DNA from: Catajapyx aquilonaris
Taxonomy: Eukaryota
Assembly: GCA_000934665.2 (NCBI GenBank)
Contig: JYFJ02001206.1
Location: 62,001 to 87,398, forward strand
DNA length: 25,398 nt
Direction: 5' to 3'
The position numbers and the translations under genes are program-made. Shown piece after piece: positions 599-22,538 of this stretch (position 1 is the first letter of the stretch; each line of letters starts with the position of its first letter). Below the pieces are notes generated by a model. It saw only the letters and a program-made list of their open reading frames with translations, had not been told where the DNA came from and did no database searches.

Positions 599-2958
599 TT
601 ACATGATTGATTTTCTTGGGGGCAAAGGAGGAGTTCGTTGAGTGTTATGCGTCGCTGCAGAACTTGCATCAGCATAAATTTCATCATCATTTGCATTTTT
701 ATGTACATTTCCTCCATCATTATAAATGGGTTCTTCAGTGACGTTTCCTGCATCATCATAAGTACTCTCATCATTGTTTGCATGAACCTGGACCGGTGTG
801 GTACTTTCTGCATCATCGTAAACAGGATTATGATTCTGGCCATTTGTAGCATCATCATAAATAGGATGTTGATTATGGCCATTTGTAGCATCATCATAAA
901 TAGGATTTTGATCCTGGTCATTCTCCACGACATTTGTAGCGTCGTCGTAAACAGCAGAATTTTCGCAGTGCCCATGTCGAGAATTATGTGTCACATTCAT
1001 ATCTTCATATATAGGTGCCTTAATATTTCCAGCCTCTTCATACACTTTGTTGTGATGTCTGGAAGTGGGTGACACATTTCCTGCATCAACATAAGTTTGT
1101 GGTCTGTTGTTCTGATGTGAAAAATCACGTGATATATTTCCAGCATCGATATATGTGCTGTTGTCCTGGATACTTGTTGCTGGAGATTGCTGATGACTTC
1201 TGGGTGGTAAATGCCGATTGTCTTCCTGGCTATGGATTTGAACTATTGCTGATGACCCAAGACCACTCGGGCTGGCTTGATGGGAATTGCTTACCTGATC
1301 CGGGCTATAAAAATTAGTAGACCTTACAGAATTCATTAGAGACTTGCCCAGTCCTGGCCTTCTTTTATGCCACAAAAAGGTCATAACCTGCAAAATGGAT
1401 AATCACTGTATATTGCGTAAGTAGTACTTAATTATAGAAAATAAGACCTTTGTGTGCAGGGTTTCTAAAAATATGCAATTACCAGTAATCCTATCAGGGT
1501 GATTGCAAACAAAGTGCCCAAAGCGATAGCAGCACCCCTACTTTTATCTCCTTGTACAATGACCACCGTTGCTTCTGTAAAATAATTAATATGCATATAA
1601 TTTATTAAAATGCTACTATATGTAATCAAATTATATTAATTCAATGACATACTTGTAGTACTTTGGAGATGTGTCGTCCTTGTCGATTCTGTAGTATTTG
1701 CATATGTTGTGGTTGTCTCTTTTGTGTGGTTGGAAGTGTGGTTGTAATATTCATTGTTGTAGTTACAGCTGTGGCAGCTGTTGTTGCATTATGTGGCTCT
1801 GATGTGACTTTTGACGTTGATTTCGTGGTATGACCAGTTGCCTTGATGGTCAAGTTCTGAATAATTTTTCCTGCATGGACGTCACGAACTTTGCAGATGA
1901 CCGAGTGGGTAAAATCACAGGGAAAAACATTCATTCCTTCATGTGTAATTGCCACGCACCCGGTGGTTTTTTGCAACTCCACATCACTTCTGTAACAAAA
2001 TAATTCACGTTGTAAGTCCACATGCAATATTTTAAAATTACAACTTCTATGGACTTACATTGCTGTGGAATTGTTTAGGCTTCTCTCGTATGTCGGAAAA
2101 GTGTTAGAATTTCCTATCCACCAAGACTGGTTGCCCTTAACCACACTTCTTATCCAATCCTTGTAGATAAGAAACAAAAATTTAGTAATAATTAATTACA
2201 GCTTATTACTATGTATACCATTTCACGTGTCGTCTGAATGACAGCCATGTTGCTTCCGACATGCTCCCGGCATACATCTACTGCTTGATTCCATGTCAGT
2301 TCACCTTTGCAGTGATAGTAAAAGTAGCCATGTTGTTTGTATGGTTCACACAGTACGTCATGTGTTGCCCTGGCTGAAAATACATTATTGACGTCATTTT
2401 GACAGTTATCATTACCCTTAGTTGACTGCATAATTTTATTTATATTACCCCGTGATAACCCGATTAGGGTTTATAGGGGAGTGGATTACCACCATTTTTA
2501 GAAACAATTTTCCAATTTTACTTCAATCTCCGTGCAAGGACTTTCGGGATATAAGGTAGGGAAAGGGATTGTTGAGGAGGGGACACTTGTGCAGGTGCAT
2601 TGTCCTAGGCTTTGGGCCATGTGCAGTCCCCCAGGAGGTTAGGTTGCCAGACACCTCCTTGGTGCAGGTCAGAGACCCTCCCGACGCAGGTGAAAGGAAG
2701 TTCCCCAGGCGGGGATCAAACCTGGGGCCTTTCACTCAGCAAGCCGAGACGTTACCATCTCGGCCACCACACCTCCCCCTAGTTGACTGCATAATCACAA
2801 ATACAAATGCAAATGATAGAGAAGAATGATAAATGACTTACCACATACGCAATAATGTACCACAAGCATCATCCATAATGAAATGCAGCGAATTCTGCAT
2901 TAGTAGCAAGTCAGAAAAGGAGTGAGATTTTCCTCCTTCAGTACTCCACTGCTGACAT
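599..2958 (-). CDS. CTL receptor 1: signal peptide + single C-type lectin-like domain + Thr-rich mucin-like stalk + TM + long multi-tyrosine cytoplasmic tail (apparent 1-bp frameshift at ~1720)
   Basis: Manual exons: 2958-2945 (tentative), 2894-2842, 2373-2219, 2159-2059, 1989-1653, 1574-1483, 1387-599, all with GT-AG borders. CTLD motifs: LTWNQAVDVC..MAVI, SWWIG, GCVAI..FPCDFTHSVICK. TM: AAIALGTLFAITLIGLL/VMTFLW followed by HKRR. The phase of the TM exon requires one extra base in the A-run at 1720-1723. Confidence 0.8.
811..950 (-). repeat. 39-bp coding tandem repeat (PIYDDATNGxNxx) in the cytoplasmic tail of CTL receptor 1
   Basis: catttgtagcatcatcataaataggat recurs at 841 and 880, with degenerate copies on both sides. 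Confidence 0.85.
2435..2779 (-). mobile_element. tRNA-derived SINE in an intron of CTL receptor 1
   Basis: Minus-strand head GGGGGAGGTGTGGTGGCCGAGATGGTAAC (A box) and GGTTTGATCCC (B box). A-rich tail GGGGTAATATAAATAAA. 16-bp TSD tagttgactgcataat at 2419-2434 and 2780-2795. Confidence 0.9.
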
Positions 2959-3154
2959 CTTCTGAATGAATAAATACACTATATCTAGACGATAATAGTC
3001 TACTTATCGCTCGTTATCTAACTGCTGATTTCAAACTATTATGACTATTCTATCGGCATCCACGAAAGGATATGCAACACTACCAAAATAATAATGAAAT
3101 CTGTATAAATGAAGCCGTTTGTGAGTCTGCCTGTCTCTCTGTCTGTCCGCCTGC

Positions 3155-3252
3155 CAACCGTCATTTGCCTGCCATCTGTGCTCCACCCCCAGGCCGGAAC
3201 AGGATGGAGGTGTTGGGGGTTTTGAATACAAATGGCAGGCAAATGACGGTTG
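3155..3252. repeat. Inverted repeat / hairpin with a 21-bp perfect stem
   Basis: caaccgtcatttgcctgccat (3155-3175) is the reverse complement of 3232-3252; imperfect pairing continues inward. Confidence 0.8.
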
Positions 3253-3515
3253 CCGTTACACAGGCGGGAGAGGTTGAAGGTGTTGGAGTAGCAGGAGATG
3301 GCATTGGTGGGCGGACACACTGAAATACAGACAGTTGACGGGGCCACTGGCAGGTGCTTTCCCTTCATTCATTTCTTCCCGGGCAACGCCGGGTGCCGCA
3401 TCTAGTGAAGCATAAACGGCGAATACCAAAGCAATTTTTATATCATAATAAACCAATTGGCACTATTGGCAATTGAAGAAGACGGCTTGATTATTAATTT
3501 TGTACTTTATTGAAA

Positions 3516-5072
3516 TCATGGTCCTGTAGTACCAGACAGTAGCCTTCTCGTGTGAAAATTGTCCCTGATGAATGCTCTTCGATTTCTCCATACCAAAAAA
3601 AGTGTCCGGAACTGTAAAAACAAAAAAAACAAAAAAAAAGCTGAGAGTGTAACCCCCAATCAACTAGAAACATACCAGACATCCAAGAAGAAGCAGTAGA
3701 AAAATTGATACTGCCGACAATATCATGATCACATAATTGTCCCTTATAATATCCAGAAATGTAACAGTAGCTTCTTCAATTACCACAGTGTCCAACTCTT
3801 CATCTAATAACATTTCCGTAATATCAGTGCTGTAGCTGTAGTATTCTTTTTCACAGATGAAGGGACATTTCTGGCTGCATTGTTGGTCACTTAAGTAGCC
3901 ACCCTTCATCATTCCGCAATCCTCTTCGTTATCCACATGAGATGTATGGACATCCCATGGTCTGCAACAATGTAGTAAAAAGTCATTTCTGCCCTGTAAC
4001 AATAGTAATAATAATCGACTAACATAGCATCAGTGTCCAAGACGTCCTTATTCAACCATTTCCAATCGAAGCCGACCTTCTCAATTCCTAACCACCACGA
4101 TGAACACTTTCCTTCATTTTCCTTGCCGCGAATTAGAAAGTAACCTACGATATACTGGACAAAGATATTCCTTTACTTGATGTTCAGATACGTGTCTATT
4201 CTGTCCTCACCTTATCTGTCGCATTGTGGATCTGAAGGAGCGACCAGGACTTTCTCCTGCAAGTGTTGTAGGCCTCTATCCATGTAGATTTACTAGTAAA
4301 AAATTCGAAGGACTCGTATGAGAAGGGTACAGGCATCTTCAGCCCTGTATTATCTGGGAATAGTAAGAGTCTTTGAATACTTCCATAATATAATTATAAC
4401 ACCCAATTAAGTAGGCCTACCATCATAGCAGATGAAGCACCTGACTTCGTTACAAGGAATCGGATTTAAACTCCTGCTGCTCCTGATGAACTCTGCGCAG
4501 TCCTTCCCATACTTTCCATTGTTAGGTTCTCCCTCGTCCCATTTGCTGAAAATGAACCCCGTTATCTTTGTGTCTACACAGTCATATAATGAGAAAGTAA
4601 CTCACATTGCTGCAGTGTCCAGCGGATGTCCATTAACCCACTTCCACGTATCCTCCAGGTCCCTGTCGTCAATGCCTATCCACCAAGAATCGCGTGGATT
4701 GTTGCTTGAATGAGTCACATTGTCCAGCCATATCTAGTAGAATCGGAAGTGAATTATTGTCTAAATGGAATATAGCATCTTACCTTTTCGAGAACATCTT
4801 GTATGATAACAAGATCTCCTTGTAAGTCTTGACACTTTTGTCGGGCGTCGTACCATGCCAGTGGACTGCGACATAAAAGGTAGGACTTATTGTTGTTCAC
4901 TGGTGGTGTCCAATCATGTTCACACTCAATCTCCTTGCATTCTAATTTGTCTTAAATGATATTAGACGGATGTTAAGCGTCGTATATTTAAATAACTCTA
5001 ACAAACATTGTGCATCCACTTACTTGCAAGCAACACCACAGCAATAGTCTGCCATACGGTCCAAAGCGACAT
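3516..5072 (-). CDS. CTL receptor 2: signal peptide + two CTLDs (EPN motif in domain 1) + TM + short tail with no tyrosine
   Basis: Exons 5072-5024 (MSLWTVWQTIAVVLLA), ~4950-4784, 4733-4606 (SWWIGIDD..WKWVNG), 4545-4421 (WDEGEPNN..DCAE..CNEVRCFIC), 4353-4211, 4154-4024, 3961-3676 (CPFICEK..TM), 3611-3516. Phases are consistent and AATAAA follows the stop. Confidence 0.9.
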
Positions 5073-5298
5073 GACCTTTAGCGGAATGGAAGGATCAACA
5101 TATCACTTGCAATGCCAGTTTGGCATACATAATTATACCGATTCTAAGCACTGAATACCATCACACGCGTAAGGTCAAACTCCTCAGTGAGTACTGCTGG
5201 GTGCAGGGGGCATAGTTCTTTAGAATGTACTACTTCATGTTTGCACAGAAATGATAGAAGATATGCTGATAATTAATTTTTTCATGGTTTATTTCATT

Positions 5299-5373
5299 TT
5301 GACAAGCCTGACAAAGGATTACTGTAGGCCTAGCACTAGGAGGCCTACAGTAATCCTTTGTCAGGCTTGTCAA
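5299..5373. repeat. Perfect palindrome with 33-bp arms and a 9-nt loop
   Basis: ttgacaagcctgacaaaggattactgtaggcct (5299-5331) is exactly inverted at 5341-5373. Confidence 0.9.
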
Positions 5374-5620
5374 TATGAGATTGCTGAAGAAGAACAGCAA
5401 AAAAAAATCATAACAACTACTCCATGGTCTAAGCATTGTTGACCATGCACACGAATGTACTGCATGGTGGCAGTAGGCTGATAAGTGATAAAAATAATGG
5501 AGTACCAAGAAAATTGATATAATGCATTTACAGAGGTCATGTTGTGTATGCAAACATATCACATTCTACGACTTGATTTCTATTCCCGTCTCGACCTTAT
5601 CTCTGCATATACGTACTGTA

Positions 5621-5727
5621 CGGTCTCAATTAGTTTCGACCACTTTATCCTGGTCATGAAGCAACCCTTCGCACAGGCCTCATGGTGAGGACCAGGATAA
5701 AGTGGCCAAAACTAATAATCGAGACCG
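5621..5727. mobile_element. Small MITE-like element with ~35-bp imperfect terminal inverted repeats
   Basis: cggtctcaattagtttcgaccactttatcctggtc ... gaccaggataaagtggccaaaactaataatcgagaccg, flanked by TA-containing sequence. Confidence 0.6.
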
Positions 5728-5882
5728 ATATAGTACCAATCACCAGGAAGAGTCGTGTATACAGTACCACAGCACATTACTATTGGGTGTGACCCTTGTA
5801 AGGATAAACCGGGTATAAAACCCACCCCCGAGAATAATTCAACAGATTGAGTGTCCACATTATTTATTGCTGAGAGTACCCA

Positions 5883-7462
5883 TTAATCAACCCGTGTTCT
5901 CTCGGTGCTTGCGGTGGAGTGTGATCGTGGTCGCGAGAATATTTCGACCTCGTCCCCTTGCACCAGACCTTCATTGAAAGCATGTTCGACACCCATGTCT
6001 GCCAGAGACGCGTAGGAAGAGCTCTCCGTTGCTATCGGACGGGGTTTACGGAACTTCCGACGCACCAACATCATCATCATAGCCTTGGGTTTGAGGATGA
6101 GAAGAATTATTAGGACTATTCAGAATTTGACACATTGTAATTACTCACGAGTGCAACAAGGGCGAGGCATCCCATGCTCACTTTCAGAGCAACGGCCAGT
6201 CCTGATGGGGAGCTCACACTGGATTCACTCGGTTCTGCTACCATTTTAACGTCTGAAGTGTAATTAAAATTTACTACAATCAATTTTAATTTCTTGATAT
6301 CCACCTTACCACTGCCTACTGTTGAATTGAGCCATGTTTTACTCCTCTTGCATATGGATGAGTAGTTCTGGTTGCAAGGGTAGTCAACAAGGTGTCCTTT
6401 GTGGATAGTCCCACAATATTTCGTCTGCTCATTTGTTGCATTTTTGGGATTCCTGCAAGAAGTTACAGTCAGAAGCTACAACAATAGATGCCTGAAACTG
6501 TCAACTTACTTGGGTTCTTCAGTTGTAACACTACAGTCTTCAAGTGGGTCTGTTCCTTGACTTATCCACCACGAGTCACACGTATTTTCATCATGCAAGA
6601 TGATGTACAGCATCATATTCTGCATATGCAAATAAAATTGTTTTTACCATTGTTACAACCTGTTAATTTCATATAGTGCAATACCCCACTTGCCCTTTGT
6701 TTACAGTTATCAAGAGAGATTAGAGATGATCCTGTACTTTTGCAGGCGTCCTTTGCTTCAGCCCATGTGGACTTCAGACCGTGAAACTCCACATCAGTCA
6801 TCACAACATCGTCTATACTCCCTGTAATACACATCAGTACAAACACAGCCCATGTAAACTCTGTAAACCTGCTTACCATAATGGCATATGAAACACTTGT
6901 ATGCCCCACACGTTTGCTTCTGAACCTTCAACGATGATCTGTCAAAGTGAGTACACTCTTCCGTCTCACTTCCATCTGCAGTTGTCCACTTTCTGAAAGA
7001 ATCAACAGACAATTTTCTAGTCCCAAACTAGTTAGCTGGACTTACATCTTGGACTCTTCGAACGAACTACCATCCACCCATCTCCATTTTGAGTCCACCT
7101 CTGCCAGTCCTGTCCACCAGTTAGCCGCACTGTCCACCACATTTTGTAGCCATTTCTGCATAATCACATCATTACAATAAATTCATTGCAATGTTAAGTC
7201 ACACTTACATGCTCTTCCTCTGACTTAATCACTAGCAGGTCACCTCCTTCTTGCTTGCAGTGCTTTCTTGCATCGGACCAACTGGAAACATTTCCGTTGA
7301 AAGAGTACGACCAAGTGGTGTTTGCCCTTTCTATCCATACAGATTCACCTAGAATTTGCCACATGTTAGGTTGTACAAGGGGGGACATATACAGTCACAC
7401 TTACCAGTCACTGACAGAAGTATGAGAGCAATCAAAGAGAGACGACAACCGATGCAATCCAT
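5883..7462 (-). CDS. CTL receptor 3: signal peptide + two CTLDs + TM + tail with ITIM-like SSYASL
   Basis: Exons 7462-7405, 7348-7209, 7155-7046 (NWWTGLAE..WRWVDG), 6992-6877, 6821-6694 (probable GC donor), 6619-6510, 6452-6310, 6252-6149, 6083-5883. AATAAA lies ~15 nt after the stop. Confidence 0.9.
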
Positions 7463-7895
7463 GTTTCTGGACCGAGGTATGGCGCATTAATCTCGTTGCT
7501 CACTCGCACAAGGTGTGAGATATGGAAGGAATCTAATCATTGTGTGCTTATAAGATAAGGATGACAGGTAGGCCGTGAGTTCATTGAAACACCAGCCCAT
7601 GTTACGCATTTAATAAGTACAACATATTTATTCAGCTCTTACAAAATGCATTATTTACAGGTTTACCGCTACTACTAAAATTCCATTTGTACCAGTTACA
7701 AAGAGTAAAAATCTGAAGCGTACAGAAGTTCATTAATCATGTTTACATCAGCAAACATTGTCCTTGAGATACACCTACCATCAACAAAGGCCTGACGCAT
7801 TAATCACTGCTACAATGATTGGCCACCAGAGTGAGGCTCAAGTGACAGAAAGCGGTTGAACCATGGTCTTAAAATACTAAGGTCTGAACACTCTC

Positions 7896-8199
7896 TCTTA
7901 TCGCCTGCCCGGCGGTTTCTATGAGGTGCTCACTTGAGAGCGCCATGAGACAGCTTTTCTCTGCTCAATTATGTGGCGACCCTACCGGACTACGCTGAAC
8001 TAAGGTAGAAGAGAAGCCTCTACATGCGGGCCCAACATGGCCGCAGGCCACCATGTTGGGTCCCCCAATGTAACGCTTCCCTTTTGTACCTATAAAGTTC
8101 TGCGTAGTCCGGTAGGGTCGCCACATAATAGAGCGGTGAAAGGTCTCATGGCACTCTCAGGTGAGCATCTCATGCAAAACGCCCCGGCAGGCAATAAGA
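7896..8199. mobile_element. ~300-bp foldback/MITE-like imperfect palindrome
   Basis: Arms pair along their whole length (tcttatcgcctgcc/ggcaggcaataaga; attatgtggcgaccctaccggactacgc/gcgtagtccggtagggtcgccacataat; cccaacatgg/ccatgttggg). Centre at ~8045. Confidence 0.8.
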
Positions 8200-8243
8200 T
8201 AAGATTGTAGAGGAAGTGTCCAGGGGCTGGGTTGAACAAAGGG

Positions 8244-8332
<89 letters not shown>
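8244..8332. repeat. (AAT)n microsatellite, about 29 units
   Basis: Uninterrupted aat repeat. Confidence 0.98.
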
Positions 8333-8402: not shown

Positions 8403-10450
8403 CTAAACTGTCGTTTCATAATATTCCAGCCTGCTGTACACTGTTTCACTTCGCGGAATAGAGTGCCCATCTCTGCTGAGGTTTGCAACAAGCCGTTTCC
8501 TCACAGATAGTCGAAGCACCTCCAGTGACCTTTGACCGTAGTAGTACGCCGATTTGCATGCAGGGGTCTGTTCGAATATGGATAATATGGCACATTTGAT
8601 CATCCTCAAAAACATAATTATTACGAACATTACCTTCATTATAATGAGTCCAACAATAGTTGTTGCGCACATGATGAAAACCAAAGCAGTAATTATTTTC
8701 AGCAAAACTGTAGTTCTTGAATATCCTGCAAAAAAGCTGAAGTTCCATTAGAATTTTGGCTGCCTTTAAAATTAACGTTGGGTTTACCTACGCTGCTACT
8801 GGGATTAATTTTGCAAATAAATGGAACTTTTCGATCGCAAGGAAATTCATACACCTTCCCATCCTTGATTGCAGAGCACATTGCTTCATCATATATTTTT
8901 GCTTCGTTATGTTGGATATCTCTGCAATTAAGAATTATTTGTACTATTATTGTTTTTTTTGGCAAAATATAATGGACAGGGTTAGTAAAATTACCCAATC
9001 AAAGGGATTACAAACATTTTGAGAATTTTTGCAGCATTTTCTTGTTGCGTCCATCTCATAACCTCCGGTTCATTGTGGTGAATCCACCATGAACTGCAGC
9101 TGGTGTCGTCATACAGAATGTAATAATCAAGGATTCCCTGCAATTAAAGTTCATTATTCAACAATTACTGCCAATGTACTGGAAAAATATTTACCTTATC
9201 TCTTAACGACACGACTGTGGGCAGAGACCAACCACGTTTTCTGCAAATGTGAAGAGCGTCATGCCATGTCCTTTGTTTCTCATGAAATTCCATGTTGTCA
9301 TAACTAAATGGTTCTGGCATAATGAACGTTCCTGAACACATACCAAAACCATATTAATATAAAGTACAGTCTACTCAGCTGAATAACCCACCATTGTAGC
9401 AGGCATAGCACTCCTTTGAATGGCACGACACATTTTGAAACACCGATCCTTCTCGCCGGTACACTGTACACATTGCAGGATTGTCACTTTCAACTTCATT
9501 TTCAACAAACTTTCTGCAATCACAATATTCCTAACATGATTTACAACAACAATCGAAGCAATGATAACATACATGCGCGATGTGTTTAAGTTGCTGTCGT
9601 CAACCCACGCCCATTGCCACTCGTTATCGTCATCAGACAACCCGACCCAATATTCAATTCCTGTTTCCAGAGCGTCGTTCATCAGTTCCTGCAAGTATTT
9701 ATATATTGACAAACAACAATGTATGCACATCTTCTTGGCAAGGACTGACGGTCTTACCAGCTCTGATTTTGTTCCGAGCACCAGCAAACTGGAATTGTCC
9801 TCACGGCACGTTGCCAATGCTTCTGACCATTTCTGAGGTGTATGATGAAGAACATAATGATCTGACGATGTCGTAAGCTCAGTACGTTCTAATTGAATGC
9901 TCTCCACTACCGGTAAGGAACCTGAAATGTATTGATACAAATTAATACGCCATTATTAAAGGATCGCCTGCATAGACGGTGGCGTCTCACGTATGTTGAC
10001 ATACTATTGCATCAGGTTCAAACCTTGTCATAAACAAAACAACGTGCGCAGTGGACACGATATGATAAAAAGAGTAGGAACCACTATTGTTAAACGCACA
10101 TTTAACCGAATCGTAATTTAATGAGCACATCATAATATTCAGTTTTCATAAAATAGTCGCTGCAGGATAGGACTGTGACTTCACGACATCGCTTCAGGAT
10201 ATCATCAACTATTTTAAGGTCACTTTGTACGGGTTACGCGAATTTTTTTGTGGAAACAAACTCTCAAGTACAATTTATACAAATCACACTCCTAACAGTA
10301 AGTCGCATGTAGCGTAGGCCTAAGTGCCTCTTGTAGACTACATAATATCTGAACACTATTGCAAAATGAATAATTAGGAAATAGTAATTACTCACTGATG
10401 ACGTCGATGCAAAGCAATAAGGCAGTACACAAAGCCCAGAAACGAAGCAT
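8403..10450 (-). CDS. CTL receptor 4: signal peptide + two CTLDs + TM + tail with TVYSRL and C-terminal ETTV
   Basis: Exons 10450-10396 (MLRFWALCTALLLCIDVI), 9921-9758, 9688-9573 (EYWVGLSDDDNEWQWAWVD), 9513-9392, 9331-9195, 9137-9016, 8921-8788, 8725-8634, 8567-8403. Phases are consistent. Confidence 0.9.
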
Positions 10451-10863: not shown

Positions 10864-11188
10864 GGGGAGGCGAAGTGGCGCTGCGGTAACGTATGCGCCC
10901 GCGGATGTTAAGGTCCCGGGTTCGATCCCAACCCGGGGTTCCCCCCTTCATCTCGCGCAGAGTAAGACCGTCTCTGGCTTCGTTTCGGGTGGCGATCCTT
11001 CCACATATGCCACCCGGGGGAGTTCACAAAACGGCACATCAACGTCTGTGCACACGCACTTTGCACATCCCCTCCTACCTACCCTTGGAACACGCTAAAT
11101 ACTATCTTAGTATACCAGTTCCACCCAGATGGTGGTATTCCACCCCCCCTAAAGGAAATGTAACTCCCAATGGGGTAATGCAAAAAAA
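10864..11188 (+). mobile_element. tRNA-derived SINE, full length
   Basis: A box TGGCGCTGCGG, B box GGTTCGATCCC, tail GGGGTAATGCAAAAAAA. 10-bp TSD gagacaaaat at 10854-10863 and 11189-11198. Confidence 0.92.
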
Positions 11189-11460: not shown

Positions 11461-13203
11461 TCAAACTGTGGTGCTTTGAACCGAATAATCCGATTCTGGT
11501 CTCAGCCTGTAAAACGACAGATTACTATCAACATGAGTCATGTTGCTGCTGAAGTGCCTGTTCCTCAACCAATTCCACCACACCCAGAGTTTTCTTTTGC
11601 CACATTCAGGGAATCCAGTGGCCTGTTGGAAGAGAAAAAACTGTCACTTTGGAGTCATTACAGTCATTCTTGAAACATACCTTCATTACAATAAACCCCA
11701 GTACAGGTGCTAACATTACTAAGATGACAATACATAGCACACTTGTGGCTGATAAATAATCTGAAAGAAGGAAAATGCCATTACTTCCAATGGACATTAA
11801 ATAAACCACATTATTATGGGTACCGGTAGTTAAACTGGATGCATACCAGCTTCAGTGTGACTAGTGATACCATTAATTTTGCAAACAAATGGACGTTTGT
11901 TATGGCACGGAATTTGCATCAATTTTTCATCCTTTATAGCAGAACACATTTTACTCTGGCTTGTTCCTGATTCCAGGTCATGATTTTCTCTGAAATTATG
12001 CCCAGGTTTGTGATTATACAATGTTTGAATACATATAAATGTGCATAAAGTAATCTTGAACTGTAAATAGATAAATAGCTGCATAAGAAACTAGTCGCAA
12101 ACCTGTTGAGAATTGTTGCATCACACCCATCATCTTGCATCCACCTGAGAACCTCATGTTGATTGTTGATATGATGCAACCACCATGAAGTGCAATCACT
12201 CTCGTCGTACAAAACGTAGTAGTTGAATATGCCCTGGATAATAAAATATTTAATGTAAGTATTATTGCAAAACGTACAAAAAGGCTCAAGTAGGCATACC
12301 TTATCTACCAATGAATTGATGGTTGGCAGAGACCATCCTTTTGATTTGCACATGTGATTAGCTTCATGCCATGTCTTCTGCTTTTCATGAAATTCCAGAT
12401 TATCATAATTAAATGGTACCGGCATGGCGAATGTTCCTGTATAAATAGTACATTTATGTGCAGTCTATAGTATGTGGATATGCTCTTATTTCAATAATGT
12501 AATGACTCACCATTGTAGCACACGTAGCAATGTCTTAAATGACACGACACATTTTGAAACACCTTTCCTTGCTTTCGGTACAGTGTGCACAGGTCCGTAC
12601 TGATATTAGTGGCTTCAATTTCAACAAATTCTCTACAATGTTGATAAAATATTATTGAACCAATTTTATAAAAAAGTGTAACTCACAAGCTTGATGTGTT
12701 CAAGATATTTTTGTCAACCCAAAGCCATTGCCACTCATTGTCGTCGTCTGAAAGCCCAATCCAATATTCAGTTCCTTTTTCCAGAATGTCTTGAAGCAGT
12801 TCCTACAAACATTTTAATTGGCAGAGTAATCACCTCAAAGTACACTATCCATAAAACCAAAATGCATTATTTTAGCATCTTACAACCAAGTAATGGCGCT
12901 TCTTACCAGCTCCGAATGAGCTCTAAGGACCAGTAAGCTGCCATTATTATTCTCACGGCATGCTGTCAGTGCTTCGGTCCACTTCTGAGGTGTTCGACGT
13001 ACAACGTAGTGGTCCAAAGAAAGTTCATGAGTGACCCATTCTTTCTGAACACCTCCTTGCACGAACATAGCATCTAAAACACAACAAATTTTATGTACAA
13101 TGGAAACTCGAGGAAAACTCGAGGAGCACTAACAACATACTCTCTACTTACTGAACATTATTAAAATGAGGAGACAAAAACACGCCCAGGCCTGCAGCCA
13201 CAT
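11461..13203 (-). CDS. CTL receptor 5: signal peptide + two CTLDs + TM + tail ending STTV; ectodomain closest to receptor 4
   Basis: Exons 13203-13152, 13073-12907, 12802-12687 (EYWIGLSDDDNEWQWLWVD), 12632-12511, 12436-12300, 12233-12103, 11989-11847, 11760-11681, 11622-11461. Confidence 0.9.
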
Positions 13204-13540
13204 CAGACTGTGAAAATGGCTTTATGCCAGTCAAAGGTGACTGAACACCCCTTCTTTCTTCTCTTTTGAGTGACTTTGCAGAATAGTACTTTGTGGTGTT
13301 GCCTCCAGATGACAGATATCTTGGACGAATGGTAAGCCACCTTGTGGGCAATGAAGGAAGTGAGGATCTGGACAAGGGTTAATCACACTGAGATCTAATC
13401 TTACTAGCCTACTTCGACCCCGACATGTCTAAAATACCTCATCTCCATTAGAACTGATGGTCCGCGTACGATAAGTATGATAAGTCATCAGTACCGCACG
13501 ATATTTAGTCGATTTTTAGACAAATATGCGGAATATGATT

Positions 13541-13657
13541 AAAGAGTGTAACTCGCAAGACAGATGGGTCCAGGCAAATTTTGTCAACCCAAGGCCACTG
13601 CCCCACAACCTCTAAAACATGACAAATTGAAGTAAGCTACAATAGTACAATGGAAAT
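13541..13657 (-). pseudogene. Degenerate fragment of a CTL gene copy
   Basis: 13541-13602 resembles 12671-12732 (exon 3 end and donor; aagagtgtaactcgcaag..ttgtcaacccaaggccactgcc). 13611-13655 resembles the intron-1 acceptor region at 13073-13106 (tctaaaaca..caaatt..tacaatggaaa). Confidence 0.65.
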
Positions 13658-13935
13658 TAGTTATAATTCACACAATAATTATTATTATGTATACGGTTTA
13701 CTGTGGATGGTACAGTACAAAGGATTGCAACTCAAACAATGGAAGAATTGGTGAAGGAATGTCCATTCTAAGTGCACCGGGCACATTTTTATTGTAGTAG
13801 ATATGCACACCATTGACACTATAGGTGGACTAAGCTCACTGAAAATTGGAGGTTTTTGGGATAAAAATGGCCATATGGGGGAAAATGGCACATTTGTGGC
13901 CCAGACATGTCCGTCGTATGGAAGCATGTGGGTTG

Positions 13936-14004
13936 CACGTGACTGGAACTAATTTGCGTGGAAGCTGAGCTGGCCAATAGGAAGCGGGCTGCCTTCCCTA
14001 TAAA
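13936..14004 (+). promoter_or_regulatory. Promoter of YEQ-repeat gene 1: E-box CACGTG, CCAAT, TATAAA
   Basis: CACGTG 13936-13941, CCAAT 13974-13978, TATAAA 13999-14004. Same order and spacing as in the paralogue at 17831-17897. Confidence 0.75.
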
Positions 14005-14091
14005 GGTGGGCGACTGGGTGGTGCTGGTCCTCTGTCACAGCTCTCACCAACTTAGCTGCACGACGTCTCTTCTTACTACTTTGTTATCGTA

Positions 14092-14768
14092 ATGAACAAC
14101 GTAAGTAGTTTAACAAGTGTACGGGAAATACTGAGGAAAGGATTTACGTTTGTTTTATTTATTCACAGATGCTGGTCGCTGTCTTCCTGGCCCTTGTGGC
14201 ATGCTCGTCTGCTGGGTACTACGAGATGACTCCGGCTCCTACTTACGGATACGAGCAGCCCAAGTATGAGCAGAAGCAGTCCTATGGCTACGAGCAGAAG
14301 TACGAGCAGCCCAAATACGAAGAGAAATCATATGGATACGAGCAGCCCAAGTACGAGCAGAAGCAGTCCTACGGCTACGAGCAGAAGTACGAGCAGCCCA
14401 AATACGAAGAGAAATCCTACGGCTACGAGCAGCCCAAATACGAAGAGAAATCCTACGGCTACGAGCAGCCCAAATACGAAGAGAAATCCCACGGCTACGA
14501 GCAGAAGTACGAGCAGCCCAAATACGAAGAGAAATCTTACGGCTACGAGCAGCCCAAGTATGAGCAGAAGTACGAGCAGCCCAAATACGAAGAGAAATCT
14601 TACGGCTACGAGCAGCCCAAGTATGAGCAGAAGTACGAGCAGCCCAAATACGAAAAGAAATCTTACGGCTACGAGCAGCCCAAGTATGAGCAGAAGTACG
14701 AGCAGCCCAAATACGAAGAGAAATCCTACGGCTACGAGCAGCCCAAGTATGAGAGCTACGGTTATTAA
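14092..14768 (+). CDS. Secreted Tyr/Glu/Gln/Lys-rich repeat protein 1 (GYEQPKYE repeats; putative cuticle, eggshell or adhesive structural protein)
   Basis: Exon 1 ATG AAC AAC (14092-14100), phase-0 intron gtaagt..ttcacag, exon 2 14169-14768. Signal peptide MNNMLVAVFLALVACSSA. TATA upstream and AATAAA at 14795-14800. Confidence 0.92.
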
Positions 14769-15242
14769 ATCCCCAATGCTTGTATAACTATTTTAATAAA
14801 ACATGGAAATGGTAACTTAATATGGTGCTATTATGATCCAAACAAATCCTGCCTGCCCAACTTTTCACAGCTGCTGATTTACCTTCACTTACAAATTACC
14901 ATATTTATCCTGGCTAAATGGTTGCAGCTTGCCTCACTTGCTTCCCGTCAAGGAAGTGGCTGTTAATTTGTACATGTAATCATGGGTGATAGCAATTTTT
15001 CTCACTACAGAAACCTTTTAAATCTGAAAATATACCCTCTTTATCCAGTGGCATAAAAATCAAATTGGACCCAATATTCTATAGTTTAATCACTTTAATT
15101 TGAGATCACATTTTTCAGTACATGCTGCAAGTAGCTGACAATTTTAATTACGCTTTATTTTAAGCAAAATCACAATAGAATTCTGGACTTTCTGATCCAG
15201 ATGAATCCACAATAAGTGATTGAAAAGCACTTTGGTGTCAAA

Positions 15243-17315
15243 TTACACGTTGCTCTGAGGGTTGCCCTGCTCGTGGACCTTTGGCTGAACACCTGTGTCT
15301 TCAGGGCTGACTTTGTAGTATCCCTTTCCTCTCATCATGATCTTCTTAGCCAGTTCGCTCACATTGTTGGTGTACCGCTGCACCAAGTTACCTCTGTAGT
15401 GGAACCTCGTCTTATGCCGGTATGGCAGGTACCATACCAGAACAGCCTGTTGAAAGTTGCATATTGAAATATGAGCCGTTGAAAGTTGCATATTGAAATA
15501 TGAGCCATTGAAAACTGTTCGAGTGACGTACCATCATTATTCCGAAGGCTGACAGGCATATGCTCATGACGACATATTTGAACGAAAACAAGCTTCCTGT
15601 AAATAGACATAAGTGAGAGAAATATTCGACCTCATACTGTAATGTCGTTACCTCGTGTGAGTTGACTGTCGATGGTTTTCTTGCACACAAACGGCAGCTG
15701 TCTGAAGCAATGAACAGACTTCAGATTTCCACTCTTGACAGACACACAGTTCTTGTCCTGGTATGTAGACTCCTCCTCACTGTCTCTGAAATATGTAGCA
15801 TTGTTACGCCACATATGAACAGACTGACTCATGTCGTCTTACATCAAACGAATTCCCTCATTTTCATGTTGCCACTCCCATGCATCAGACGCGGCATTGT
15901 TCTTCCCCAGCCACCAGGAGGAGCACTTGGTTTCATCATGAAGGATATAATAGTCGAACACTCCCTGTAACACAACAATGTTTGAAACATTCAGCCTGCA
16001 AGTATTGAACTCTACTGACCTTATCTATCCAGTTGTCGATGCTGACTAGAGACCATCCTTGCCACTGGCATATGTGCATAGCTTCATGCCACGTCTTGGT
16101 GGTGTTGTGAAATTCTAAGCCGGAGAAGCTGAAAGGCACTGGCATACCAAGTACCCCTGTGCAAACCAGTCATTAGTAAGCTAATTATGAGGTACTCTAC
16201 ATTTGCTTACCATCATAGCATACAAAGCAGGCCTTTGTGTAGCATGGAAAATTCCTAAACTCTCGTTCGTCCCTCATGTATCTCACGCATTCTTGCGCAG
16301 GCTCCACATTGTTCGGATTCTCCTCAGTCCACTTTCTGAAATGTTTCGTTGTGGTAACAAGAACGACCAAAAAACACCGTGTGAACTCACATAGTCAGCG
16401 GATCCAACCGACTTCCTTCAATCCACCTCCACTGCCACTGATTGTCGTCATCAGACAATCCAATCCACATCTCCGAATCGCCCTTATTCAGTTCTTCCAG
16501 CCATTCCTATGTGTAAAGATTATGGTTGAATCTCACATTCGAACCTTACAGTACAATACATACAAGTTCCTGATGTGACCGAACGACCACGAGGTCACTC
16601 TCCTGTTTCTTGCATGTGCTGACAGCCTGAGACCACGTCACTGGGACATTAATATGCAAGTAGTGGTCGTTTGAATGAGGACGTTGGATCCATTGAACAT
16701 ATGCTGTGTTGCCTTGGATCAACTGAGGTGCTGGAAAAATATCATGTAAAATCTACTTTGTAAAAATATGGCTACAAAATTGGCCATAATTATTTGCGAC
16801 GTTTCAACACAATGCAATGCATGGGTTCAATAAAAAGCAGTGTTGTTATCAAGTCACTGATATTGTTCGCGATTCTCTTATCTTAACCTCTGAGACCTCA
16901 CGTGATACCTAATGTAGGTGTCCTACTGATGCGTCACACCGTAGGCTACATAACTCGTCACTTCTGTACAAACAAACATTTTGTCCTCCTCGGTACAAGG
17001 TACATGCTGGGACAAAGACAATTTGACATTATCAGTCACTTCAATTTCCCTCCGATAGGTGATGCTGACGGACACAGTTATACAAACATAATTAGGCAAT
17101 AATTAAGGTTTTAAAATGATAACTGGTTTTTATAATAGGTCGTACTTAGCTCTTCACATGTGTGGATTTATGAATAAGATGCCATTAATTGAAATTATTT
17201 GCCCGTACGACTATTATGGTCATAATATAGGTGGAGGGTTAAGCTAACAATAAACTATGTACTTACAGAATAAGAAAATGAGGAGGCAAAAACAAGGCCA
17301 GGCCTGCCACGACAT
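15243..17315 (-). CDS. CTL receptor 6: signal peptide + two CTLDs (NPN variant motif) + TM + tail ending QSNV
   Basis: Exons 17315-17267, 16730-16564, 16506-16391 (MWIGLSDDDNQWQWRWIEG), 16335-16211 (WTEENPNN..ECV), 16156-16020, 15965-15843, 15785-15652, 15596-15532, 15446-15243. Confidence 0.9.
15449..15506. repeat. 29-bp perfect tandem duplication in the last intron of CTL receptor 6
   Basis: gttgaaagttgcatattgaaatatgagcc occurs twice, adjacent to the 3' splice site. Confidence 0.9.
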
Positions 17316-17830
17316 CCTGTGAAAATGGTGATATCCGAGTGACTTTGCCGTTTTCCCCGTACCTTTTCCACCTGTTGAAAGTTAATCACTCGAATCTAAT
17401 CTTTCTACCTCAACCCCGACGTGTCTAAGATAAAATAGAGAGGCATAGAACGCTGCACTCTTCACAAAACATTTGCAGATGAAATTAATCAACGTCTCAT
17501 TTTTATGTACAGTTGCAAACATGATTAGCGACTTCTTTTTGCCAAAGTGCATTATTATCTGGTATAGCAGTGTCAGGAGAAATGGTTACAATCAACGATT
17601 GTTGTTGCCTGATCCTATCTGCTGGGTACTCCACATAATATTTTGGAGTTTAGCCAGAAAGTGGCTTCAGCTATTGCAAAAATACCAGTGTTGCAAAATG
17701 TTTGCATAGTGTACCACTACATTCTCAAAAAAAAAGCAGGAGACACTTATACAGTATATGTTCTATCAATCTGCATTTGACTGGCATATTTCGCTGCCCC
17801 CCCCCCCCCACATTNTTTTTTTAGATAAGT

Positions 17831-17897
17831 CACGTGAGTTCAGTCATTAGCATACAAGCTGCCCTGCCCAATAGGATGTGAGGGGCTTCACTATAAA
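17831..17897 (+). promoter_or_regulatory. Promoter of YEQ-repeat gene 2: E-box CACGTG, CCAAT, TATAAA
   Basis: CACGTG 17831-17836, CCAAT 17868-17872, TATAAA 17892-17897. Confidence 0.75.
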
Positions 17898-17976
17898 GGA
17901 AGGTGGCAAGGCTGAGAAGGTCCTCTTTTGTTGCTCTTGTTTTCACTGCAACAACGCATTTATTAGCTCAGGAATA

Positions 17977-18690
17977 ATGGCCAAGGTGGGTATGATGTGC
18001 GTTGTTATTGAGATCACATTACTAATTTTATTATCATGTTTTATCAGGTACTCATTGCTGTCTTCCTGGCCCTTGTGGCATATTCGTCTGCTGGGTACTA
18101 CGAGATGACTCCGGCGCCCACTTCCTACGGATACGAGCAGCCCAAGTACGATGAAAAATCCTACGGGTACGAGCAGCCCAAGTATGAGATGAAGCAGTCC
18201 TACGGTTACGAGCAGAAGTACGAGCAGCCGAAATACGAAGAAAAATCCTACGGCTACGAGCAACCCAAGTATGAGAAGCAGTCTTATGGATACGAGCAGA
18301 AGTACGAGCAGCCAAAGTTCGAGAAGCCGAGCTACGGCTACGAGCAGCCCAAATACGAAGAGAAATCCTACGGCTACGAGCAGCCCAANCGGCTACGAGC
18401 AGCCCAAGTACGAGAAGCAGAGCTACGGGTACGAACAGAAGTACGAGCAGCCCAAATATGAAGAGAAGCAGTCCTACGGCTACGAGCAGCCCAAGTACGA
18501 GAAGCAGAGCTACGGGTACGAACAGAAGTACGAGCAGCCCAAATATGAAGAGAAGCAGTCCTACGGCTACGAGCAGCCCAAGTACGAGAAGCAGAGCTAC
18601 GGGTACGAACAGAAGTACGAGCAGCCCAAATATGAAGAGAAGCAGAGCTATGGATACGAGCAGCCTAAATACGAGACCTACGGTTATTGA
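17977..18690 (+). CDS. Secreted Tyr/Glu/Gln/Lys-rich repeat protein 2 (paralogue of 14092-14768; assembly gap within the repeats)
   Basis: Exon 1 ATG GCC AAG (17977-17985), intron to 18047, exon 2 VLIAVFLALVAYSSAGYYEMTPAPT... The frame change coincides with the 'n' at 18389. Ends YETYGY*, with AATAAA at 18715-18720. Confidence 0.88.
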
Positions 18691-20160
18691 AGTGAACATG
18701 TATTAAAATTGATCAATAAACAATTTCTATTAGACACTTTTGACTTTGCCTACAAAAACCGATAACCATATGATTCCAAATTCACTAATTTAGACTATTT
18801 CAGTTGACGTCAGGTAGTTCAACGAACTGTCTTTCAGCAGCAACTAATGTACCAATACTGTACTTATAGCCCTCTCGTCGCAAGCTTGGGACTTTAAAGC
18901 TTCCGTATATTCATTCAACCAGAGGATTCTGCTGACATAATATAGTACCATAAGTGTAGGGTGAAACCTGGTGCTTTGATTTGTCATAATCTCTTATTAA
19001 ATAAAGCAGTGACTCTGTATGTCCCGGCTACCTAACACATTTCAACACCTCAGAGCGCTGAGATTTTTCACTGATGCTAAACCTGCATGTGATTGAGTAA
19101 AAAGTCCGAAAACTGCACTTTTTAAAGTTTAAATGCCTTAAATACGTATCTGCGCAATTTTTACGCGCATGCCCCTCCCTTCACCTCATGCTTCTCGGCC
19201 TTGCTCATACCCCGCCTCCCCACTTCTGCTCCGAGTCCCCCTCGCGCGTCTTCCTCCCTCCCACGCCACCAAGCAGGCAAAATAGGAAGCTGATGCCCAG
19301 TTCGCCACAATGCACGAAAGGGTGAGGGTCTCTCAGAGAATGGTCACCTTGGCGCCCTTTCCATGTCGCCCACCCACTCCTCGCCCCTCCAGTGTCTAGA
19401 CGTACGCTTCAGCTGCAAGGTAAGGTAGAAGGGGGGCAATGGGGGTACCAACAACTGCGTCTTCCACTTAACAATGAAACGAACGGAAAAAAAATCGAGC
19501 TTTGCAAGGGTACAACTTTATTTTCCAGAGGCAAGCAAACAAAGCAAATATTTGTTCCCTATGCCCAGATGTTGATTTGGACCGTAGTTCCTTTCATTAT
19601 TATTATCATTTATCATTTTCATTACTTTAATCCAAAATTGGGGGTGGGGAGTAAATTTTTAAAAAACATTGTGAAATAAGTTTAAGACAATAATTTCTGG
19701 TATGCTAGCTTGGTGTCAAATTAGCATGAATCAAACCCACTGAATAGCCTACGAATATGCTGTTTAAAGAGGCTATTAAAAATGGCTGCCCAAAATGACC
19801 ATTGAGTTCGAAGTGAACCATACCAATGTGTAGGTTGTCGTTTCCGACATTTTTGTGTTACAGTACGATAAAACCCATGCTAAATGAGATGGGTGATTGG
19901 TTGTCGGGCGATTAGAACGACGTATTGACAGCGAATCCAGTCGAAATTATGTTTCTGGAGGATAAAGACGAATAGAGGCAATGCAGCATTAATCCGTCCA
20001 GGCATTTGCACTATGAGCACCAAGCTACGACATTGCTCTAGCACCTCCCTTCCCAGTGTTAGCATTGTTCCCTATCATCATCATCATCATCCTCGTCGCT
20101 CTTTACTAAACACCATGCCTATAGTTCTTACTAATTAAAAATGTGAATTCAGCCAAGATA

Positions 20161-22538
20161 TTATGCTTTGCTCTCTTCTTGCAACGGATTGTAAGGAATC
20201 CCCATTTTGTCTTGGGAGTTTGTCTTTCTCCGAGGACAAACTTCCTTCAGTCCAGAGAAACGCCACGTCTGTGAAATGTAGGCACAATGTAGGTATGTAA
20301 GTTTTAGGCGGATTCAGTAAAACACATTATCAATAGCATGCAACAAAATATGGTACAGCATAAACTTACCACCGCCAAGAAGACTATTATTGACATTAAT
20401 ATTGTCATCGTTATGTAAATTGTGATCAACACAGGCGAATGCTCCAATGTGTCTGGGACGAACCGTTCTGAAAAGGCGAAAAGAAAATTAATGATTGATT
20501 CGTTTGCAACTGTTGGAATATCACGTAAACAGCCAAGTACCTTGGGTTGTGTCAATGTACACGTCGCTGTAATTTCTTTTGCAAGCAAATGGAAGTTTGT
20601 GAAAGCAATTGAAATCGTATAGCTGTCCATTCTTGATTGCTCCACAGTCTTCTTCGCAGTCGTCACACGGCTCTTCTTCTTGCTCTTCCCCTTCGGCGGA
20701 CCTAACACAAAGAAGGTACACTGGAGTGTGAAACAGAACTGTGTACTATATTGTGTACTAGGCACCAACTTGCCAAAATTTGGCAAAAAAATTAGGCATC
20801 GAAGCGACATCCGATGGTGAAGTGCGGAAATAAGTGCATGAGTAAGCGAGTCCAGGAGGTGGCGCCCTGGCGCCCGGAACGGCGAAATTGGGAATTCCGT
20901 GGTAGTGCTGTCGTGGGTTGTTTTTTTGTGGTTCACAAGGTCCCTGGCCCCTTTTTCCAAAAATCAAAAGTGGTTTGCAAATATAGAAAACTCGGGCAAA
21001 ATTTAGAGACCACGCCCAGGGTACATTTTGTGAGCTCCCTAGGGGGGGGGGGGGATTTATGTCAAGGATCACCATTGGATCACCACCCTAGACGTCGTAG
21101 CCAGAGACGACCCAACTCTGCACGAGATAAAGGGGGAAAATACCGGGCTGGGGATCGAACCCGGGACCCTTACATCCGTGGGCGCATACGTCTCCCTGGT
21201 GCAAGAGCCACGAATACACTGATGTTTGAGGATTCTTACATAAAAGGTACGCCAGGATTTGCCTGCTTCCATTGCCATATCTCCGAGATGTTGTTGTCCC
21301 TTTGCAACCACCAAGATGTGCAATTACTCTGGTCGTGCAGGATGTAGTAATTAAGTACTCCCTGAAATGTATTCCAAAAGTTAAAAGTGTCCTTCCAAGT
21401 CTTCATAGGAGGCCTCTGACAGACCTTATGCACCCAAGTGTCAATCCTCACAAGAGACCACCTTCTTTTGGCACAAATCTCTTCAGCTTCATACCACGTC
21501 TTGGGAGTGTCAATGAAATCCAACGTGTTGTAGCTGAATGGCACCGGAAGGCTGGTTAGTTCTCCTGCATTGTTATAATAAATGAGTAGAAATTAATCAA
21601 AAATGAAACAATGTACTCCTCCTGAACAGGCCTTACCATCGCAGCAGGCGAAGCAAGCCTTCTTGTGACATGGAAGATCCTTGAATTCTCTCTTGATCTT
21701 GACGTACTCGACGCATCCTCTTGCTGGTGCACCGTTGTCAGGTTGGTTCTTACCCCATTCGCTGGAATAGCAACAAAACAACTTTGTATCTGATTGTTTT
21801 CAAATCATAGGTCGAAAATTGCTAAACACTAACGTGATGGATTCATTGACTGGAGTTCCGTCAATCCATCTCCATCGCAATTCGGTATCGTAGTCTGACA
21901 GTGCAACCCAATAATCGGTGTCGTTGTCAAGTAGACTCTGAAGCCATTCCTGTAAGGTCACACAAGTTATTACTCTTGATGTGGACATTCGGAAGACATG
22001 TGAAGTTAGAAGCTTGGCAGACATGCTCAATGCTGGATTCCACGACAAGAAGTTTGCTGTTGTTGGCTTCACATGCGGCGTGTGCATCTTCCCACGAATC
22101 TGGTGCATTGTTGTGGATGTAATAATTGTCGGATGAGCCAGGCCGTTGAATCCATCCTTGTGTCTGGGCGAGGGCTGGTGTTAATACACTTACAACTGTG
22201 AAGAGTATGGGCTACAACACTCCATAAGCTCGATACACCTAATATGAGTGGAAATAAATAGGTTTGCTACCTAAAATAGCCAATGCAAATTGAAAATCTG
22301 GCTTTCTTCCGTGTTTCTGCGACTTGGCAGAGTGGAAGAGAAAATATGCAGCGTAGTTCTTTGTTGCAGGCAATTTGTATTCCTCTTCCATGCCATTTGC
22401 ATTTCTCATCCCATTAGGGAGGAAACATTTGCAGGAAATTTGGACGCATATCTGCAACAAAAATCCATTACTAAAGCGTGGTAGCATTATTAGGACGATC
22501 ATCCGTGCGAGCAGTATGGCTATATAACATGGTGACAT
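20161..22538 (-). CDS. CTL receptor 7: signal peptide + two CTLDs (QPD motif in domain 1) + TM + short tail with ITIM-like IPYNPL
   Basis: Exons 22538-22472, 22195-22023, 21949-21834 (DYWVALSD..WRWIDG), 21761-21637 (WGKNQPDN..GCVE), 21564-21425, 21361-21240, 20701-20541, 20467-20370, 20268-20161. Confidence 0.88.
21025..21190 (-). mobile_element. Partial SINE of the same family as 10864-11188, in intron 6 of CTL receptor 7
   Basis: Minus strand acgtatgcgcccacggatgtaagggtcccgggttcgatccc..tctcgtgcagag..gtctctggct..gggagctcacaaaa aligns with 10888-11031. Ends are not resolved. Confidence 0.8.

Follow-up and report, generated by a model that had tools for sequence, protein, structure and literature searches.

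A lineage-specific tandem family of predicted type I membrane proteins with two C-type lectin-like domains and divergent cytoplasmic tails in Catajapyx aquilonaris

Vertebrate natural killer (NK)-complex receptors are type II proteins with one CTLD (C-type lectin-like domain); their paired members have near-identical ectodomains, and they use an immunoreceptor tyrosine-based inhibitory motif (ITIM), a hemITAM (half of an immunoreceptor tyrosine-based activation motif) or adaptors associated with a charged transmembrane (TM) segment. Here we describe seven genes, named G1 to G7, in a window of 25,398 bases of Catajapyx aquilonaris DNA (assembly GCA_000934665.2, contig JYFJ02001206.1, positions 62,001 to 87,398; 37-47% G+C, a single N at 17815 and at 18389). 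This locus resembles the vertebrate NK-complex and myeloid receptor clusters (Ly49, NKG2, the Dectin-1 and Dectin-2 clusters) in that tandem membrane CTLD genes carry differing tails. It differs from them in that the predicted proteins are of type I, with two CTLDs and 22-51% identity to one another, ITIM matches being at chance level and no adaptor signature being present.

Arthropod C-type lectins with two carbohydrate-recognition domains (CRDs) are known as secreted opsonins. Insect immulectins, as portrayed in sections of PMC7379682, have a signal peptide followed by two tandem CTLDs and no TM segment, act extracellularly and form lineage-specific expansions without orthologues in other species; the insect TM C-type lectins presented in the same sections are CTL-X proteins with additional domains. 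The present proteins are likened to immulectins by architecture only, two tandem CTLDs standing behind a signal peptide. In oyster, sections of PMC13027682 describe CgCLec-TM1 and CgCLec-HTM, which have one CRD and a hemITAM and signal in haemocytes via Syk, ERK and IL-17. The likeness lies in the combination of an invertebrate membrane C-type lectin with a tyrosine-based tail motif, whereas the proteins considered here, known from their genes alone, have two CTLDs and lack a YxxL preceded by an acidic triad. In Caenorhabditis elegans, CLEC-38 is said, in the original 2008 paper, to have two CTLDs. Its gene, clec-38, is presented in sections of PMC3130637 as encoding a transmembrane CTLD protein that regulates netrin signalling. 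CLEC-38 differs from the present family in being the product of a single gene with a neuronal netrin/UNC-40 role, and the two are compared here by architecture only. A word search of the open-access literature turned up no cluster of dual-CTLD type I receptors in arthropods, which is no proof of absence; in a review of crustacean receptors (PMC9028835), no TM C-type lectin appeared at five mentions of 'transmembrane domain' or 'cytoplasmic tail'.

On the predicted gene models, the locus is a lineage-specific tandem family of putative type I dual-CTLD membrane proteins, with one CTLD in G1. We consider it fairly probable that G1 to G7 are cell-surface recognition receptors whose tails serve mainly for localisation or trafficking; their expression and insertion in the membrane are what we infer from the models. 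Exons were located by reading the minus strand in three frames and by scanning each block for AG and GT/GC sites under a fixed phase plan. When the blocks of open reading frame (ORF) were compared with the window by tblastn, six sets of six mutually similar blocks and one set of three were obtained. The resulting models, which are predictions from sequence and paralogy and are numbered along the plus strand (Table 1), form seven co-oriented minus-strand genes over 599-22538, with the G1 stop codon ending on position 599 and the G7 ATG at 22538. A preliminary description of the window had proposed seven co-oriented genes over this interval, six of them built on a common plan of two CTLDs and a TM segment. 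Both statements were borne out, and the two end points are exact.

In gene order, the exons comprise a hydrophobic first exon, A1 to A3 (CTLD-A), B1 to B3 (CTLD-B), a TM exon and a tail exon. The division of each CTLD among three exons is also that of the CTLD in vertebrate NK-complex and myeloid receptors. The exon phases are 1-0, 0-2 and 2-1 in CTLD-A and again in CTLD-B, and 1-0 in the TM exon. G3 to G7 have nine exons each, with identical phases; G2 has eight, its sole departure from the plan being the fusion of B3 with the TM exon. Together, G2 to G7 give six complete ORFs of 368-374 residues with no internal stop. Their 47 introns, mostly 50-104 nt long, are of the GT-AG type with one exception (46/47), a GC-AG intron after G3 B1. 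The GC donor, at 6694, lies in a perfect AG/GCAAGT context and keeps the exon as long as it is in the paralogues; use of a weaker GT donor at 6685, 9 nt downstream, would give three extra residues. The first exon of G4 was located by a hydrophobicity scan. Most of the G6 intron between the TM and tail exons is occupied by a 29-nt tandem repeat (15444-15513, 2.4 copies, 95% matches).

The Lectin_C assignment anticipated in the preliminary description was obtained for both domains, and the family belongs to the CTLD superfamily. At E<=0.01, the Pfam Lectin_C profile matched 10 of the 29 exon-bearing ORFs, and these matches spanned G2 to G7 and both A and B exons. The gathering score was exceeded by two ORFs despite their being fragments, and the G4 ORF at 9371-9952 scored 29.7 bits. 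The nearest clusters in the language-model Atlas were also Lectin_C, with scores of 0.90-0.92. In the six-protein alignment, both domains have invariant Cys and Trp columns, with the conserved Cys framework and the W-x-A...C/WIGL-type core, and each ectodomain (about 270-300 residues) contains 10-14 Cys and 1-5 N-glycosylation sequons. On the Lectin_C domains of 24 database proteins, the CTLD-A profile of the six paralogues scored up to 74 bits, and their CTLD-B profile scored 20-30 bits, with nearly all of its length covered; because this small library had been pre-selected for CTLD proteins, only the bit scores are meaningful and the E-values are uninformative. Alignment of the CTLD-A and CTLD-B profiles with hhalign gave a probability of 96% (E 1.6e-9). 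This alignment and the repeated phase plan show, at the level of the predicted proteins, that the two CTLDs arose via internal duplication.

The residues of the canonical sugar site were compared among the members. EPN was found only in G2 CTLD-A and QPD only in G7 CTLD-A, and WND in no member. With E values of 0.0014-0.0019, exon A3 of G2 could be aligned to mannose-binding protein and collectin-11 (PDB 1hup, 1kza and 4yli) across their EPN region. The exon resembles these CRDs at the EPN site and differs from them in that Lys takes the place of the acidic residue lying two positions ahead of the Cys, and L-N-P that of W-N-D. A complete Ca2+ site 2 (EPN or QPD, the acidic residue and WND) is absent from every member. 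As the canonical Ca2+/sugar site is incomplete everywhere, these CTLDs are to be regarded as predicted lectin-like domains and not as demonstrated lectins; for the same reason, several members may bind non-sugar ligands.

Membrane topology was assigned from Kyte-Doolittle hydropathy alone, in 19-residue windows. Each of G2 to G7 has one strong C-terminal hydrophobic peak (2.2-3.1), after which Arg and Lys residues cluster. Four of these six proteins also show a peak exceeding 1.6 at the N-terminus, and the first exons of G2 and G6 encode 16 hydrophobic residues. These profiles fit type I single-pass membrane proteins with predicted cytoplasmic tails of 23-59 residues. The TM segment of G2 has no internal charge; in G3 and G4, a Lys lies at the outer edge of the hydrophobic stretch. 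A TM exon (phase 1 to 0) and an open tail exon are present in all seven genes. Identity with the immulectins was rejected, given the TM peak and the basic residues that follow it in all six dual-CTLD proteins.

Pairwise protein identity among the six dual-CTLD members ranges from 22 to 51%, with 51% for G4-G5 and 39% for G6-G7. For G4-G5, the only pair to which the dN/dS estimate (nonsynonymous over synonymous rate) was restricted, synonymous sites being saturated in all others, dN/dS was 0.23 in domain A and 0.35 in domain B. The proportion of nonsynonymous differences (pN) was below that of synonymous differences (pS) in all 18 pair-by-region comparisons. It was highest in the tails (0.39-0.61, versus 0.25-0.49 in the ectodomains), and exons were more similar than introns among the paralogues. 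Duplication took place long ago, purifying selection has maintained the genes, and constraint is weakest in the tails.

These data bear on another explanation, in which the TM and tail exons would be unused or confined to minority transcripts, the products being secreted dual-CRD lectins of the immulectin kind, or in which several copies would be decaying pseudogenes. Retention of the intron after B3 would lead to a stop after 5-6 codons in G5, G6 and G7, G1 has no signal-peptide exon and depends on an unusual intron (see below), and the insect dual-CRD lectins treated in sections of PMC7379682 are secreted. However, with identities of 22-51% and synonymous sites saturated, an in-phase TM exon and an open tail exon in 7/7 genes are hard to explain if these exons are unused. 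Furthermore, six genes are free of internal stops and dN/dS is below 1. Secretion or decay of this kind is, in our opinion, quite improbable.

G1 departs from the other members in having a single CTLD, encoded by three exons whose phases are those of the dual-CTLD paralogues. No match was found in the exon-level Pfam scan of G1; against the hidden Markov model of the six paralogues' CTLD-A domains, it scored 33.7 bits. Its frame is open solely if a 50-nt GT-AG intron (1717-1766), with a weak, purine-rich acceptor, is spliced out, and no signal-peptide exon was found in 2380-3450. The tail, of 256 residues, is long and rich in tyrosine. The preliminary description had credited it with 11 tyrosine motifs: the tyrosine-rich character stands, with 12 Tyr, but the motifs cannot be counted as independent, because three of them, the PIYDDATN-type units, are encoded by a 39-nt tandem repeat (810-922, 2.9 copies).

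Motif counts in the seven tails were compared with 20,000 composition-preserving shuffles. The tails themselves have little in common: 20 of the 21 pairs scored Z<3, in line with the earlier statement that the last exons are largely unrelated. Only the G3-G1 pair scored higher (Z 3.5), and in its alignment the G3 Tyr meets one motif of G1, and Phe of G3 stands opposite two further G1 Tyr. A C-terminal [S/T]-x-[V/L/I], which constitutes a class I PDZ-domain ligand, ends three of the seven tails (TTV in G4 and G5, SNV in G6), as had been noted for these receptors, against an expectation of 0.18 (P 0.0004, a value that overstates independence, since the three ends may share ancestry, G4 and G5 being the closest pair). 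It is the sole tail feature above chance. The G4-G6 ends match the class I PDZ-ligand consensus, and binding to PDZ domains is predicted. Retention of such a triplet while the remainder of the tail diverged beyond recognition is the pattern that would be expected of a functional motif.

The tyrosine motifs behave differently. SSYASL in G3 and IPYNPL in G7 fit the ITIM consensus (S/I/V/L)xYxx(L/I/V), and TVYSRL in G4 fits a loose immunoreceptor tyrosine-based switch motif (ITSM). The preliminary description had reported these three strings and the absence of Tyr from the G2 tail. All are as described, no Tyr being found among the 23 residues of the G2 tail, but the strings do not exceed chance. 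The ITIM consensus was observed twice, with 0.98 expected over the seven tails (P 0.26) and 0.65 over the six dual-CTLD tails (P 0.13). TxYxx[VIL] was observed once (expected 0.25, P 0.22) and YxxL/I three times (expected 2.0, P 0.34). ITIM-consensus matches are thus expected by chance in short tails and cannot alone support the claim of an inhibitory receptor.

Paired receptors are defined by near-identical ectodomains joined to opposite tails. The preliminary description had interpreted the locus as a candidate complex of this kind, evolved independently for self/non-self recognition. On such an NK-complex-like reading, SH2 phosphatases would be recruited by the members with an ITIM (G3, G7 and perhaps G4), which would thereby counteract the activating or null ones (G1 and G2) in self/non-self recognition. 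In favour of this interpretation, the ITIM-type Tyr is the only Tyr of the tail in both G3 and G7, the tails differ sharply on a common ectodomain plan, and the multi-tyrosine tail of G1 could act as a docking platform. In addition, oyster provides a precedent, as sections of PMC13027682 indicate, for membrane C-type lectins of invertebrates that signal through tyrosine motifs. However, ITIM matches stay at chance level, identity between the ectodomains is 22-51% and not near-complete, and the closest pair, G4 and G5, has like tails, both ending in TTV. No ITAM (the full activation motif) was found in any of the seven tails, no YxxL with a preceding acidic triad was found in the G3, G4 and G7 tails, and none of G1 to G7, the short-tailed G2 included, combines a short tail with a basic residue in the middle of the TM segment, as activating members do. 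Moreover, the parts that would carry the signalling, the tails, are the least constrained. On three counts (chance-level ITIM matches, ectodomains that are not near-identical, no activating-type member), the interpretation is unsupported, and there seems little chance that it is correct. What holds of the earlier interpretation is the tandem membrane CTLD family, with a common ectodomain plan and divergent tails; the paired-receptor and ITIM part of it is not supported. Two named classes were rejected on the same features: a paired-receptor set of the KIR, Ly49, LILR or Siglec type, for want of near-identical ectodomains with opposite tails, and a hemITAM receptor such as CLEC-2, Dectin-1 or CgCLec-HTM, the acidic triad being missing before the YxxL of G3, G4 and G7.

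The preliminary description had also envisaged orthologues in which the tail motifs could be compared; none was found in word-indexed searches, among 1.84 billion representative proteins or in metagenomes. Word-indexed searches returned 59 candidates for the G7 B1-B2 ORF (longer lengths) and 6111 for the G1 tail, none of them significant. The exhaustive search of the 1.84 billion representatives with the G4 ORF at 9374-9952 gave 24 matches at E<=1e-3 (best 1.5e-8) and none at E<=1e-10; all 24 are generic multi-CTLD proteins. Only A1 and A2 of G4 are in frame in this query, A3 being out of frame, which lowered the power of the search; a 50%-identical orthologue should nevertheless score far higher, even with a two-exon query. 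A metagenome scan with a three-sequence B1 alignment yielded 226 pattern matches, of which one passed tblastn. This locus was rejected as a chance match: it consists of 22 residues on a contig of 1391 nt with 59% GC, and no other exon was matched. A family without a close relative among 1.84 billion representative proteins is an example of fast, lineage-specific receptor evolution.

If G1 to G7 are cell-surface recognition receptors, as we favour, their ectodomains would recognise glycan or protein ligands at the cell surface, ligand binding being predicted from the domains, and the intracellular role of each member would probably be set by short linear motifs in the fast-evolving tails. In G4, G5 and G6, the class I PDZ-ligand C-terminus would allow anchoring or localisation by PDZ scaffolds. 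The single YxxL of G3, G4 and G7 could be a generic tyrosine-based sorting or internalisation signal, which fits as well as an ITIM. The long G1 tail, with its many tyrosines and proline motif, could serve as a docking platform, G1 being a possible multi-phosphotyrosine docking receptor, and the tail of G2 would be almost featureless.

Several points weigh against this reading. The YxxL/I count is at chance level, and a sorting role for YxxL is statistically no better supported than an inhibitory one. The possible common ancestry of the S/T-x-V ends weakens the PDZ statistic, and the E-values of the CTLD profiles come from a small library chosen for CTLD proteins. G1 may be a pseudogene, since no signal-peptide exon is recognisable and an intron with a weak acceptor is needed. 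Finally, secreted isoforms of G5, G6 and G7 are possible, because a retained intron after B3 soon meets a stop codon. The data speak neither for nor against an immune or self/non-self role. The locus has a solid and rather uncommon anatomy, but invertebrates often show lineage-specific expansions of CTLD genes, and the sequence does not support the signalling story.

A bolder form of the receptor reading has only a slender chance of being right: that an arthropod-type lineage independently built a cluster of type I dual-CTLD proteins whose members connect to different machineries inside the cell. The connections would consist of multi-phosphotyrosine docking with NPxY, YxxM and SH3-ligand motifs for G1, a single YxxL for G3 and G7, PDZ binding for G4 to G6 and a near-null tail for G2. 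If true, the locus would be analogous in function to the NK-complex and myeloid lectin clusters of vertebrates, with signalling outputs diversified on one ectodomain scaffold. A two-domain lectin ectodomain placed on the membrane with seven different tails would be a simple system for studying how invertebrate recognition is coupled to the cell.

Table 1. Predicted genes, exons and selected features of the CTLD locus (window coordinates; exons listed in the direction of transcription).
Feature	Coordinates	Strand	Description
G1	599..2373	-	Single CTLD, Thr-rich stalk, TM, 256-residue Tyr-rich tail
G1 exons	A1 2373-2219, A2 2159-2059, A3 plus stalk 1989-1767, stalk 1716-1653, TM 1574-1483, tail 1387-599	-	
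G1 tail exon	599..1387 (789 nt)	-	12 Tyr, 9 Yx[DE]A, 2 NPxY, 1 YxxM, C-terminal PPLPPRK
G2	3516..5072	-	Signal peptide, 2 CTLDs, TM, 23-residue tail without Tyr; EPN in CTLD-A
G2 exons	5072-5024, 4950-4784, 4733-4606, 4545-4421, 4353-4211, 4154-4024, fused B3+TM 3961-3676, tail 3611-3516	-	
G3	5883..7462	-	Signal peptide, 2 CTLDs, TM, 59-residue tail; SSYASL 6003-6020
G3 exons	7462-7405, 7348-7209, 7155-7046, 6992-6877, 6821-6694, 6619-6510, 6452-6310, 6252-6149, 6083-5883	-	
G4	8403..10450	-	Signal peptide, 2 CTLDs, TM, 55-residue tail; TVYSRL 8427-8444; end TTV
G4 exons	10450-10396, 9921-9758, 9688-9573, 9513-9392, 9331-9195, 9137-9016, 8921-8788, 8725-8634, 8567-8403	-	
G5	11461..13203	-	Signal peptide, 2 CTLDs, TM, 54-residue tail; end TTV
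G5 exons	13203-13152, 13073-12907, 12802-12687, 12632-12511, 12436-12300, 12233-12103, 11989-11847, 11760-11681, 11622-11461	-	
G6	15243..17315	-	Signal peptide, 2 CTLDs, TM, 58-residue tail; end SNV
G6 exons	17315-17267, 16730-16564, 16506-16391, 16335-16211, 16156-16020, 15964-15843, 15785-15652, 15596-15532, 15446-15243	-	
G7	20161..22538	-	Signal peptide, 2 CTLDs, TM, 33-residue tail; IPYNPL 20182-20199; QPD in CTLD-A
G7 exons	22538-22472, 22195-22023 (alternative acceptor 22174), 21949-21834, 21761-21637, 21564-21425, 21361-21240, 20701-20541, 20467-20370, 20268-20161	-	
YG1	14169..14771	+	Secreted YGYEQPKYE-repeat protein, non-lectin; divergent from G5
YG2	18036..18693	+	Paralogous repeat protein; divergent from G6; frame broken at N 18389

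Two further genes, YG1 between G5 and G6 and YG2 between G6 and G7, stand on the opposite strand. Each has a single exon encoding a signal peptide followed by about 15-20 Tyr/Lys/Glu-rich repeats of the YGYEQPKYE(E/Q)K type, and their mutual DNA identity is 72%. The N at 18389 that interrupts YG2 suggests a collapsed or uncertain repeat and not a real frameshift. No Pfam family was found for the YG protein, and a database search gave one weak match; it is possibly a cross-linkable structural or matrix protein. YG1 lies head-to-head with G5 at a distance of 965 nt, and YG2 with G6 at 720 nt. In their first exons, G5 and G6 share 79% identity over 91 nt, and this, together with the identity of the YG genes, indicates that a two-gene unit was duplicated (13129-14769 versus 17244-18691), comprising the lectin first exon, a spacer of about 0.7-1 kb and the divergent YG gene. 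Because the unit was duplicated, G5/YG1 and G6/YG2 may share bidirectional promoters.

This arrangement bears on a further possibility, that the CTLD proteins are non-immune receptors for adhesion or tissue organisation, similar to CLEC-38, which PDZ scaffolds would hold at junctions or in polarised membranes and which might be expressed together with the YG proteins, for example in an epithelium secreting cuticle or matrix. The PDZ-type ends of G4-G6, the incomplete canonical sugar site in every member and the duplicated head-to-head units are all compatible with it. The nearest Atlas clusters of the YG proteins are arthropod cuticle-like proteins, with scores below 0.8, and thus a lead only, and a transmembrane CTLD protein regulating netrin signalling is provided by clec-38 in sections of PMC3130637. 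However, head-to-head placement is by itself no proof of co-regulation, and only two of the seven lectin genes have a YG neighbour. We regard such an adhesive role as unlikely.

Some minor elements complete the window, in which Rfam and ARAGORN scans gave no match. Just upstream of G7, an open frame of 172 codons (22594-23112, minus strand) belongs to no Pfam family; it may represent a gene, an exon or debris of a transposon. Two inverted pairs of dispersed repeats were observed. The first (2586-2685 and 23762-23862, 72%) has a copy just upstream of the G1 CTLD, at the place of the missing first exon, and the second (10889-10998 and 21077-21191, 81%) has its latter copy inside the 538-nt B2-B3 intron of G7. 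By translation, both pairs look like fragments of tRNA-derived short interspersed nuclear elements, with no match in ARAGORN or Rfam. The spacer between G3 and G4 contains a near-palindrome of about 290 nt (7896-8199, arms 79% identical) that resembles a miniature inverted-repeat transposable element, and it is adjoined by a perfect (ATA)n microsatellite of 29.7 copies (8244-8332). TTAGG is the arthropod-type telomere unit, and an interstitial array of its complement, which together with the cuticle-like Atlas clusters of the YG proteins gives a weak hint of an arthropod origin, has about 19.6 copies of CCTAA and occupies 96 nt at 24739-24834.

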